In this document: piece after piece, positions 24,080-29,344 of the stretch | How positions within the stretch are numbered: position 1 is the stretch's first letter | Layout of the letters: every line of letters starts with the position of its first letter | From: Myxococcales bacterium | GTDB taxonomy: Bacteria; Myxococcota_A; Polyangia; Haliangiales; Haliangiaceae | Length of the DNA stretch: 64,000 nt | Direction: 5' to 3' | Assembly (NCBI GenBank): GCA_016707895.1 | Contig: JADJGV010000002.1 | Location: 335,695 to 399,694 of the forward strand | Position numbers and translations under genes: made by a program | Notes under the pieces: generated by a model | Told to the model about the DNA's origin: nothing | Databases searched by the model: none | The model's input: the letters and a program-made list of their open reading frames with translations, nothing else

Positions 24080-26608
24080 TCACGGCAGGCGGCGGCGGAT
24101 CGCCGTGACTGCATCGAGGCGGTGACGCATGTCGATCGGCGCGGCGCTGAGCAGCTCGCTCGCGACCTGTGACGCGCGCTCGAGCGCTGCCTGCGCGGGG
24201 GCCGCGCGCCCTCGGGCTAGCTCGGCGGTGGCCAGCGCCAGCGCGTCATCGATGACGCTCATGCGCTGCCACCACGGTGCGTCGGCCCCGAACGAGGGCC
24301 TGGCGATGAGCTCGCGCACCGCCGTGTTGGGGTCGCCGTTCGCGATGGCGAGGTAGGCGCGGGCGCGCGCGATGCGGCTGTCGTTGGCGTCAGGGGTCGC
24401 GGCCGCGAGCACGAGGCGCGCGCCGGCGACGACCGCGTCGCGATCCCCGACCGCCGCCGCGCGCCAGGTCAGCTCGTGGCCGCATTCGCGGATGCTGGTG
24501 CGTTGCTCGGGGTGCAACGTGGCCAGCCGTTCGCATGGTCCACGCATCGCCTGGCGCCCCTGGTCGAAGTCGGCCATCACGCCGGTGCGCATCAGATCTG
24601 CCTCGAGCGTCAACGGGTGGCCGGGGCCGAGGGTTGCCAGGCGCGCTGCGACGAGCGCGTCGCCGAGGCCGACGCGCTCCGCGGGATCGTCGACCGCAAA
24701 CATCAGCGACTGCAGCACCACCGCCATCTCGATCGCGGCGCTGCCGGTGAGCTTCGCGGACCCCTGGCGTGAAGCCTGCAACCTCGGCAAGGCGCGCGCA
24801 CGATCGCCGCGGGCGAGCTCGACGACGCCGACGTTGTGGTCGAGCAGCGCGCGCGGGAACGCCGCGCGATCGCCGAGCCGCGTGGCGATCGCTTCGATCA
24901 GGGGCAACCCTGCGGTGGCCTCGGCGGGGTTCGACGTCGTGCCGATCGCGAACGTCGCGCGGGCGTAGGCCTCGATCACCAGGGCCTCGTCGCCGGCTTC
25001 GAGGCCACGCCGGGTCGCCTCGGTGAAGTCGTCGCGGCCGCGGCCCCGGCGCAACACCGAGAGCGCGATCCGTCCGCGTGCGAGCAACGCCCGCGCGACC
25101 AGCGGCTGGTAGCCGAGGGCCTCGGCGCGCGCGACCGCCGACTCGGCGTCGCGGGTGGCGTCATCGGTGCGTGCGGCGTCGCGCTCGACGTCGACCTTGG
25201 CGATCAGGTCGGCGATCGCGGCGGCCTCCGGCGCCTGGGTCGCGGTCGGCGGTGCGACCGGCGACAGGAGCGCGTCGTCGTCGTCGCAAGTGGCGAGGTC
25301 GGGCAGGCCGGAGGCGGCGATGACCAGATCCGGCAGCGAGCCGGTGGTGGCGGAGGCGGCGACGTCGGCGACGGCGGTCAGCGCGGCCTTGCGGCGGGCC
25401 AGGCAGGCGGTGCGACGGTCGAACGCTGCGGTCGAGACCTCGCCGCGCTGGTGAGCCATGCACGAGGCGCGCTGGATGACCACCCAGTCGTCGGCGTAGC
25501 GATCGAGCGCGGCGACGATGCGCGGCACCGACTCGCGGGCGTAGTCGCCGGCTAGCCCGGCGAGGAAGGTGTTAGCGGCGGTGCGCCGAGCGCCGCCCCA
25601 GGCGCCGGCGATCGAGGCCTCGCCGCCCTGGCACGGCGGGGGCGCCGCGACCGAGCGACGGCCGACCAGCGCCACCGCGATCGCGCCGGCGGTGACCACG
25701 CCGGCGCCGACCATGCCGCGGCGGCGCCAGCGCGCGGCGGGATCGAGCGCGAGCGCCGCGAGCAGCGCGGCCATCGACGGGAAGCGATCGGTGGCGCGCT
25801 CGGCGCTGCCGCGGGTGAGGATCGGCTCGAGCCAGCGCGGCGTCGGCCCACGCGCGGCGACGGCCTCGCGCAGCGCGACGCACAGCGCGTACTGATCGAC
25901 CGCGGCGGTCAGCGCGTCGCCGCGCTTCTGCTCGGGCGCCATGTAGCGCGGCGTGCCGGCGATCAGCGGCGCGCCGGTGTCGTCGGTGGCGTGGGCCAGG
26001 CCGAAGTCGAGCACGCGGACCCGGCCGTCGGCGCCGAGGATCGCGTTGTCGGGCTTGAAGTCGCGGTGCACCAGCCCGGCGGCGTGCGCGGCGGCCAGGC
26101 CCTCGCCGCATTGCCGGTACGCGCGCACCAGCTCGGCGACCGGCGCGCCGTCGACGGCGACGGTGCGCAACGTCTTGCCCTTGACCAGCTCCATCACCAG
26201 GAACACACCCTCGGGCGCCTCGAAGACGTCGTAGATCGGCACGACGTTCGGGTGCGAGAGGCGGGCCAGCGCACGGCCCTCGTCGCGGGCGCGCGCGCGG
26301 GCGACGTCGTCGCCGGCCGACGCCAGCTTGAGGGCGACGCCGCGGTTGAGCTCGGGGTCCCAGGCCGACCACACCACGCCCATGCCGCCGGCGCCGGCGC
26401 GCTCGATCAGCCGGTAGCGCCCGACCTTGACCGCCGCCGCCTCGCCGAACAGCGCCTCGGCCGCCTTGGCCCGCGCCACCGCGCGCTCGAGCGGATCGGC
26501 CACCGGCGCCGCGCGCACCATGTGTCCGACCGCCGTCGTCGGCGTCGCCTCGCCGGGCGCGTCGTCGCCCGGCGGCGTGGGCACAGTCGGGGCGAGCGGA
26601 TCGGCCAT
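24080..26608 (-). CDS. Ser/Thr protein kinase with C-terminal TPR-like helical region
   Basis: Kinase subdomains: GxGxxG (GAGGMGVV), VALK, HRDFKPDN, DFG, APE. One TM helix, then a long Ala/Leu-rich repeat region. Start is an internal ATG (MADPLAPTV…) and lies inside the 46-bp repeat. Confidence 0.85.
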   Translation of the reverse strand: MADPLAPTVPTPPGDDAPGEATPTTAVGHMVRAAPVADPLERAVARAKAAEALFGEAAAVKVGRYRLIERAGAGGMGVVWSAWDPELNRGVALKLASAGDDVARARARDEGRALARLSHPNVVPIYDVFEAPEGVFLVMELVKGKTLRTVAVDGAPVAELVRAYRQCGEGLAAAHAAGLVHRDFKPDNAILGADGRVRVLDFGLAHATDDTGAPLIAGTPRYMAPEQKRGDALTAAVDQYALCVALREAVAARGPTPRWLEPILTRGSAERATDRFPSMAALLAALALDPAARWRRRGMVGAGVVTAGAIAVALVGRRSVAAPPPCQGGEASIAGAWGGARRTAANTFLAGLAGDYARESVPRIVAALDRYADDWVVIQRASCMAHQRGEVSTAAFDRRTACLARRKAALTAVADVAASATTGSLPDLVIAASGLPDLATCDDDDALLSPVAPPTATQAPEAAAIADLIAKVDVERDAARTDDATRDAESAVARAEALGYQPLVARALLARGRIALSVLRRGRGRDDFTEATRRGLEAGDEALVIEAYARATFAIGTTSNPAEATAGLPLIEAIATRLGDRAAFPRALLDHNVGVVELARGDRARALPRLQASRQGSAKLTGSAAIEMAVVLQSLMFAVDDPAERVGLGDALVAARLATLGPGHPLTLEADLMRTGVMADFDQGRQAMRGPCERLATLHPEQRTSIRECGHELTWRAAAVGDRDAVVAGARLVLAAATPDANDSRIARARAYLAIANGDPNTAVRELIARPSFGADAPWWQRMSVIDDALALATAELARGRAAPAQAALERASQVASELLSAAPIDMRHRLDAVTAIRRRLP

Positions 26609-29344: not shown

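Follow-up and report, generated by a model that had tools for sequence, protein, structure and literature searches.

A conserved four-gene cassette linking a Pvc15/Afp15-type ATPase and a CpXC zinc-ribbon protein to a lipoprotein and a large zincin protein in a Myxococcales bacterium

A four-gene cassette in two back-to-back operons

We analyzed a 64-kb stretch of contig JADJGV010000002.1 from a Myxococcales bacterium (hereafter, the window; G+C ~73%), in which a gene for an AAA+ ATPase of the Pvc15/Afp15 type (669 amino acids; 27335..29344, minus strand) is directly followed by a gene for a zinc-ribbon protein of the CpXC family (223 amino acids; 26664..27335, minus strand). An earlier note on this DNA, based on the sequence alone, had described these 2 genes together with the next one, encoding a Hanks-type Ser/Thr kinase of 842 amino acids (24080..26608, minus strand), as a single regulated ATPase module. 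The coordinates and Pfam assignments agree that all 3 genes lie on the minus strand, and the description of the locus was partly confirmed, as was the interpretation attached to it. What the note missed are the conserved partners on the other side of the ATPase gene (29392-33538): a gene for a lipoprotein of ~185 amino acids (29392..29949, plus strand) and one for a protein of 1,195 amino acids that carries a zincin domain (29951..33538, plus strand), which we refer to as Big1195. These partners identify the system as related to the cargo of extracellular contractile injection systems (eCISs), and the unit is a four-gene cassette of back-to-back operons, one running from the ATPase to the CpXC gene and the other from the lipoprotein to the zincin gene. 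By start-codon mapping, the divergent intergenic region between the ATPase ATG and the lipoprotein GTG measures 47 nt (29345..29391).

The ATPase and CpXC genes overlap by exactly 1 nt, as had been noted, but the sequence at the junction, read directly, is TGATG (27333..27337, minus strand) and not ATGA, which would mean an overlap of 4 nt. The ATPase TGA occupies positions 27337-27335 and the CpXC ATG positions 27335-27333, with one base in common. The distance of 55 nt from the CpXC stop codon to the kinase ATG (26609..26663) and the lack of a terminator between the 3 genes were both reproduced: a terminator scan found none in either junction, and its single match, at chance level, fell within the ATPase coding sequence. 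A scan for sigma-70 promoters found no consensus site, including in the 47-nt region between the ATPase and lipoprotein genes, and scans of the window for tRNAs and Rfam families gave no matches.

The conservation of this arrangement was assessed in 2 sets of loci. A scan of species-representative genomes with a CpXC alignment yielded 13 loci, nearly all from Myxococcota or "Deltaproteobacteria" metagenome-assembled genomes and several from Kofleriaceae, in which genes were mapped by tblastn. A metagenome scan added 80 CpXC loci, and a total of 97 non-redundant loci were mapped with hidden Markov models (HMMs) built from the alignments of this analysis. Most of the related loci are short metagenomic contigs, and counts of "informative" loci depend on the flank thresholds chosen. 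Of the class-A genome loci, the 14 that extend far enough on that side all have the ATPase gene immediately 5' of the CpXC gene, a recurrence beyond chance, and the same order was seen in many metagenome contigs; within 5 kb of CpXC, a gene for a Pvc15-like ATPase was present in 32 of 39 informative loci in which CpXC is not fused to another domain. The TGATG junction was found in 10 of 15 loci, including the window, while gaps of 8-9 nt (3 loci) and of 173-278 nt (3 loci) were also seen. A lack of conserved linkage of the 2 genes in other genomes, which the earlier note had named as grounds against its reading, was not observed: the pair is conserved there and usually translationally coupled. 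Three distant paralogues with the same domain architecture, a winged-helix domain (WHD) followed by AAA (L006, L007, and L022), have no CpXC neighbor, so that only one branch of the WHD-AAA proteins shows the pairing.

The CpXC neighborhoods also hold a pair of genes encoding ~185 and ~1,200 amino acids without Pfam annotation, the counterparts of the lipoprotein and Big1195. The position of the larger gene varies: it is divergent from the ATPase gene in the window, L001, L005, and L009, co-directional after CpXC in L003/L012, L010, and L018, and convergent after CpXC in L011, L013-L017, and L020. Adjacency maintained through 3 different gene orders points to selection on linkage and is good evidence for functional coupling. 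Across the 97 loci, a zincin domain was either fused to CpXC or encoded at most 3 kb away in 65 of 71 informative cases, and in 2 of the 6 others it was found at 4.8-5.1 kb, the large gene being divergent there.

The cassette proteins and their relatives

The ATPase combines a winged-helix N-domain (residues 31-176; 28817..29254, minus strand; Pfam WHD PF22977, 29.4 bits against a cut-off of 27) with 2 AAA modules. As previously described, a degenerate Walker A motif, GLPGSGRG (residues 221-228; 28661..28684, minus strand), marks the first module (D1) and precedes an intact second module (D2; Pfam AAA PF00004, residues 461-587; 27584..27964, minus strand) with the Walker A motif GPPGTGKT (residues 465-472; 27929..27952, minus strand) and the Walker B motif DEAD (residues 523-526; 27767..27778, minus strand). 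The exchange of lysine for arginine in the D1 Walker A motif (GxxGxGR) is shared by 10 of 11 cassette orthologues and by P0017, a relative that resides in an eCIS; D1 contains no canonical hhhhDE Walker B motif, and the corresponding region is not conserved. In D2, orthologues and relatives that reside in eCISs retain the motifs GPPGTGKT, FDEAD, SKYVGE (with the KYVG pore loop), LTTN (sensor 1), AFRRR (the RRR fingers), and GGYIRNA (sensor 2).

Over 516 amino acids (residues 160-665, covering D1 and D2), the window ATPase is 40% identical to P0022, the ATPase of a Streptomyces eCIS locus (L008), whose gene lies between Pvc16_N and eCIS_core and adjoins sheath and gp19 tube genes. The gene for P0017 is preceded by CIS_tube, GPD, gp25, and baseplate J genes, so that 2 of the 5 ATPase relatives looked up sit within true contractile-injection clusters. 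The N-terminal 449 residues retrieved 18 word-sharing relatives, nearly all with the WHD-AAA architecture, and the N-domain is very divergent. Relatives in the PDB (Cdc48/p97 and VAT) align with the D2 module alone.

Published descriptions of Pvc15 report an N-domain resembling DNA-binding proteins, a D1 module with the Walker A lysine replaced by arginine and without an acidic Walker B motif or second region of homology, and a D2 module with GTGK and DEAD (PMC11495950). The window ATPase fits this description residue for residue, which identifies it as a double-ring unfoldase of the Pvc15/Afp15 type, minus one contextual feature, the injector cluster. Compared with Pvc15, Afp15, and Alg15 (PMC11495950; PMC9054023; 10.64898/2026.05.27.728243), it shares the succession of a winged-helix-like N-domain, D1, and D2, the altered D1 without a canonical Walker B motif, and a D2 with GTGK, DEAD, a Lys-Tyr pore loop, a sensor 1 asparagine, and paired arginine fingers. 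It differs from them in the very divergent N-domain, in lying neither in nor near a sheath, tube, and baseplate cluster, and in its translational coupling to CpXC, a feature of which we found no description among eCISs. The ATPase has the architecture of eCIS cargo loaders, with a predicted role in loading, and the earlier view that it is not a housekeeping chaperone is supported. Two other assignments were rejected. The defense protein IetA was not accepted as its identity, since the NCBIfam model IteA scored 114 bits against a cut-off of 510, the PADLOC matches to IetA span the AAA module alone, and no subtilase is encoded nearby. Likewise, membership of IetAS or PD-T4-6 as called by PADLOC was based on generic AAA and kinase-domain matches only.

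The CpXC protein, 100% identical to NCBI IPH44_29610, matches Pfam PF14353 at 64.4 bits against a cut-off of 25.4 (residues 9-142). A ribbon of the form CPxC...CxxC (residues 11-51; 27183..27305, minus strand) is followed by an alpha/beta region, and all 8 orthologues keep C11, C14, and C48, while most also keep C51. No functional work on CpXC or PF14353 was found in the searchable literature. In one 314-amino acid NCBI protein (P0008), a DUF4390-like (PF14334) N-terminal part is followed by the C-terminal two-thirds of a CpXC protein (60% identity), although the gene call, made on a contig of 1.6 kb, may be chimeric and the fusion not a true one.

Big1195 belongs to a small family. An exhaustive phmmer search of 1.84 billion representative sequences returned 158 relatives, ~50 of them full-length. 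An AlphaFold2 model based on an alignment of 48 relatives (mean predicted local distance difference test score, pLDDT, 89.5; predicted template modeling score 0.80) consists of a disordered N-terminal tail with pLDDT <50 (residues 1-34; 29951..30052, plus strand), an alpha-solenoid of short helices (residues ~38-900; 30062..32650, plus strand), and an alpha/beta zincin domain (residues ~905-1195; 32663..33535, plus strand). The tail is poorly conserved, the first 50 residues scoring 0.28, joint lowest of all 50-residue blocks, and the protein has neither a signal peptide nor a convincing membrane helix. The zincin domain carries an HEVGH motif (32960..32974, plus strand) and a PxExFAExYxxYY motif (residues 1142-1154, plus strand), and across 48 homologues H1004, E1005, H1008, E1144, and F1146-A1147 do not vary and E1148 hardly does.

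The zincin domain resembles solved M34 structures in its fold, and both of its motifs, HExxH and P-E-x-F-A-E-x-Y, align to those of PPEP-1. We compared it with the M34 zincins (anthrax lethal factor and PPEP-1, -2, and -3) and with MtfA (M90). Unlike M34 members, Big1195 falls below the threshold of Pfam ATLF (PF07737; 14.0 bits against a cut-off of 27.4; E=0.041) and embeds its zincin in a 1,195-amino acid, cytoplasmic-looking protein without a signal peptide, while one distant member of the zincin family matched ATLF at E=4.8e-4. Big1195 carries a lethal factor/PPEP-like metalloprotease domain that appears to be intact. A Foldseek search of the model against the PDB gave only non-significant karyopherin/HEAT-like matches, and PDB sequence searches with the full-length protein or a profile returned nothing useful.

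The lipoprotein has a signal peptide, the lipobox AAMLTG|C, a low-complexity linker, a cysteine pair, and a beta-rich C-terminal domain; no Pfam family matched it. A small gene with a lipobox was found directly 5' of the large gene in all 10 loci read in the right frame, which indicates that the product is exported as a lipoprotein, and each of the 10 homologues also had the cysteine pair and the low-complexity linker.

Further links between these families emerged from more distant proteins. Among 35 that share the zincin domain alone, 8 contain eCIS_core/DUF4157 and 4 contain CpXC. In the latter (P0176, P0154, P0165, and P0175), CpXC forms the N-terminus and the zincin the C-terminus (CpXC HMM, E 1e-21 to 1e-33), and such CpXC-zincin fusions occur in 15 of the 97 loci. 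DUF4157 was found in ~15 of the 97 CpXC loci and in proteins with a homologous zincin (P0117, P0125, P0129, P0152, P0156, and P0173); in the first 3 of these, of ~1,380 amino acids, it is N-terminal. The P0117 locus (L027) encodes a WHD-AAA ATPase, CpXC, and the DUF4157-...-zincin protein in succession, with overlapping stop and start codons.

Some of these loci deviate from the cassette. In 4 more distant metagenome loci (L082, L089, L094, and L096), a DUF4157-zincin gene precedes CpXC, and their ATPases retain the N/D1/D2 layout and a D2 GKT Walker A motif, but the Walker B motif reads VVEN in 3 of 4 and KYVG is absent from all 4; these ATPases may be ATP-binding, non-threading variants. The fusion P0154 is located in L025 (1-21692) and L026 in a stretch resembling a defense island, with TIR, TIR_2, LD_cluster2 (SLOG-like), RES, HNH_2, Mrr_cat, and HTH genes. 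In both, it is followed by a 372-amino acid lipoprotein-like gene with metallo-beta-lactamase-like motifs, and in L025 a gene for an LCAT/DUF7379-like hydrolase comes next.

The kinase gene and other neighbors

The kinase has a Pkinase domain (PF00069, E=2.6e-32; residues 65-256, 25841..26416) and, by hydropathy, one predicted transmembrane helix (residues 297-317; 25658..25720). It had been described as bearing tetratricopeptide repeats (TPRs), yet Pfam detects no TPR family at E<=0.01, and the C-terminal region of ~525 amino acids, lying beyond the membrane helix, should be extracytoplasmic. An alternative TTG start (26701) was ruled out, as the ATG at 26608 and the leader are conserved in L005. 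Besides the window, this 88%-identical relative is the only one in which a kinase gene follows CpXC, to judge from 27 codons on a truncated contig. L001 and L009 have a kinase gene past the large gene instead, on the other side of the cassette, with similarity mainly in the catalytic domain (36-39% identity). Overall, a kinase was encoded within 5 kb of CpXC in just 3 of 24 informative loci, which does not support its place in the module. Kinase genes occur about once per 60 kb in the related loci, so that their repeated adjacency within a sub-clade is not trivially due to chance, which leaves room for a loose, lineage-specific association. The kinase is a neighbor and no conserved member of the cassette, and would at most be a lineage-specific regulator.

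The 55-nt gap upstream of the kinase contains an AT-rich near-palindrome, GATACTATCGGAA (26621..26633, minus strand), which is kept in L005, the closest relative, while the flanks diverge. The motif looks like a candidate promoter or operator of the kinase. Located just 5' of the kinase gene, it makes obligate co-transcription less likely, and the claim that the genes have no independent promoter between them is doubtful. The motif has a second copy at 33598..33610, within a 45-nt repeat of the kinase leader and first six codons (33568..33612, minus strand) that is placed between the Big1195 stop codon and a Sel1-repeat gene. The 2 copies of the repeat (26591-26635 and 33568-33612, both minus strand) differ by 1 mismatch, and none would be expected by chance. 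Its core, GATACTATCGGAAGC, is present at both equivalent sites of L005, whereas at the second site only the window has the extension with the ATG. The repeat may serve both sites as an operator or promoter, or it may be a scar of gene conversion.

Other features of the window lie outside the cassette. The Sel1-repeat gene 3' of Big1195 (33584-35101, plus strand) appears to be split over 2 frames, with a membrane N-terminal part in the frame 33618..34499 and Sel1 repeats in the frame 33584..35101. Its homologue in L005 is called as a single open reading frame (ORF), suggesting a frameshift or an assembly error near 34330 in the window. Converging on the kinase gene are 2 tandem paralogous ADYC-domain genes (21829-22887 and 22987-24069, plus strand), just upstream of which lie genes for an extracytoplasmic function (ECF) sigma factor (21174-21770) and a DUF1028-TPR protein (19836-21146). 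A stretch of lower G+C content (0.657 against ~0.73; 10898-13251) contains a single ORF with strong, high third-position G+C (11633-12196) and no tRNA or Rfam match.

Possible roles of the cassette

Taken together, we tentatively favor the cassette as an orphan eCIS-type effector-loading module, that is, the cargo-loading part of a phage-tail-like injection system, and assign this a probability of roughly 0.45. Under this model, CpXC would bind the zincin module as a chaperone or adaptor, possibly keeping the zincin inactive, and would present Big1195 to the ATPase. The D2 ring would then engage the disordered N-terminal tail and unfold or thread Big1195, which would be loaded into a contractile particle whose genes would lie elsewhere in the genome, an arrangement resembling an auxiliary effector island. 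The exported lipoprotein would most simply act in the periplasm against the protease, as an immunity protein or an inhibitor. Unfolding of cargo by the ATPase has been proposed for loading by Pvc15 and Alg15 (PMC11495950; 10.64898/2026.05.27.728243). Cargo leaders have been described as disordered, and the disordered and unconserved tail of Big1195 matches them (10.64898/2026.05.27.728243).

The individual families of the cassette are known ones: Pvc15-type ATPases, DUF4157-type toxins, and lethal factor-like zincins. Zhang et al. (2012) described a class of anthrax lethal factor (ALF)-metallopeptidase toxins of the Photorhabdus virulence cassette (PVC) pathway in δ-proteobacteria, together with a CDC48-like AAA+ protein (PMC3482391), and Geller et al. 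(2021) described an N-terminal DUF4157 architecture for eCIS-associated toxins (PMC8213781), which the former authors also list for the PVC pathway. Big1195 resembles the toxins of this pathway (PMC3482391; PMC8213781) in being a large protein with a C-terminal lethal factor-like HExxH motif after a very long linker, found in delta-proteobacteria and Myxococcota, and its relatives P0117, P0125, and P0129 do begin with DUF4157, P0117 following an ATPase-CpXC pair. It differs in having only a 34-residue disordered tail in place of DUF4157, in its "linker", which is a well-predicted alpha-solenoid of ~860 residues and conserved length, in its pairing with an upstream lipoprotein, and in having no injector locus nearby. 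In the searchable literature, we found no description of a tight partnership of CpXC with both ATPase and zincin, of the solenoid-zincin family, of the lipoprotein partner, or of the lack of injector genes nearby.

A general analogy is offered by the auxiliary effector modules of type VI secretion systems, which comprise VgrG, an adaptor or chaperone (DUF4123, Eag), an effector, and an immunity protein. Like them, the cassette would be a compact island set apart from a putative main apparatus, its products being a delivery-specific factor, a small adaptor, a large effector, and an exported protein resembling an immunity protein. Unlike these modules, it is built from other protein families and lacks a spike protein.

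Several observations weigh against effector loading. The ATPase gene is not part of a contractile-injection gene cluster with sheath, tube, spike, or baseplate genes within the 64-kb window, and none of the genes there has a phage-tail-like Pfam domain. Searches by phmmer for sheath, tube, spike (GPD), gp25, baseplate J, and Pvc16 proteins gave 0 matches in the window and the 97 related loci, though these single-sequence queries have limited sensitivity, weak homologues could escape them, and in ~24 of the 97 loci both flanks reach 5 kb or more. Big1195 itself has no match to DUF4157 (eCIS_core), and its family is constant in length and conserved from end to end, unlike typical polymorphic toxins. 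Where CpXC and zincin are fused, a Pvc15-like ATPase was encoded within 5 kb in 0 of 4 informative loci, and the presence of one such fusion amid TIR, SLOG, RES, and HNH genes suggests an intracellular conflict role. Finally, the immunity role given to the lipoprotein is pure conjecture.

The main rival is a self-contained intracellular conflict or defense system, in which CpXC would hold the protease inactive. Phage infection, damage to the envelope, or a similar trigger would then prompt the AAA+ unfoldase to strip off or remodel CpXC or the solenoid, unleashing the protease inside the cell. This logic would be similar to that of IetAS, in which an AAA+ protein (IetA) is likewise genetically tied to a protease (IetS), and IetA models are the best matches of the ATPase in the defense library. 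The lack of injector genes near any of the 97 loci, the existence of fusion loci without an ATPase, the fusion adjoining TIR, TIR_2, LD_cluster2, RES, HNH, and Mrr genes, and the narrow and patchy family, with its 158 representatives among 1.84 billion, all agree with such a role. However, the IetA match is to a generic AAA module (114 vs 510 bits), the protease is a zincin and not a serine protease of the IetS (subtilase) type, and CpXC, the lipoprotein, and the double-ring Pvc15 architecture set the cassette apart from IetAS. An exported lipoprotein is also ill-suited to a purely cytoplasmic mechanism, the neighbors in the window (ADYC, Sel1, an ECF sigma factor, and radical SAM) do not make a defense island, and the links to DUF4157 and Pvc15 indicate exported cargo. 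We consider this rival unlikely. A related, particle-free reading, to which we give the same low odds, would have CpXC as the dedicated zinc-ribbon partner or inhibitor of a lethal factor-like protease that the Pvc15-type unfoldase activates or moves out across the envelope, with the lipoprotein as its envelope partner.

Far less probable is a split, FtsH-like two-component protease, in which the ATPase hexamer would feed substrates selected by CpXC to the zincin for quality control or regulated proteolysis. The ATPase and metalloprotease are strictly linked, the pore loop is intact, and D2 falls in the classical clade, where Cdc48, PAN, and FtsH match it best; the zincin, however, is of the monomeric toxin/PPEP/MtfA type and not chambered, the distribution is narrow and the gene order variable, related proteins carry DUF4157, fusions occur without an ATPase, and the ATPases at more distant CpXC loci have a VVEN Walker B motif and lack KYVG. 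Similarly improbable is the model of the earlier note, a single operon of ATPase, CpXC, and kinase genes in which phosphorylation by the kinase would control the ATPase module. While the common strand, the 55-nt gap without a terminator, the same kinase leader after CpXC in L005, and the kinase just past the large gene in L001 and L009, at a density of ~1 per 60 kb, are compatible with this model, the remaining class-A genome loci have no kinase (3 of 24 informative loci overall), and its position shifts between relatives whose likeness is confined to the kinase domain at 36-39% identity. In addition, the conserved AT-rich motif suggests that the kinase has its own promoter or operator, and the part outside the kinase domain should be extracytoplasmic, with no TPR detected.

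Cargo recognition and loading in contractile particles are outstanding problems that limit the use of these particles as programmable protein-delivery tools. The cassette offers a compact, conserved unit in which a Pvc15-type ATPase is joined by a zinc-ribbon protein fused to or beside an effector domain, which makes CpXC a concrete candidate for a cargo adaptor or chaperone and provides a first functional context for the CpXC family (PF14353), alongside a new family of ~1,200-amino acid solenoid-zincin proteins. It also raises the question of whether ATPase-effector modules act without an injector. Should the particle-free reading hold, the cassette would represent an unrecognized AAA+-driven route of toxin activation or secretion, or an anti-phage effector system, and the cargo-loading ATPases of eCISs would have been recruited from, or into, a free-standing module of ATPase, adaptor, and effector.

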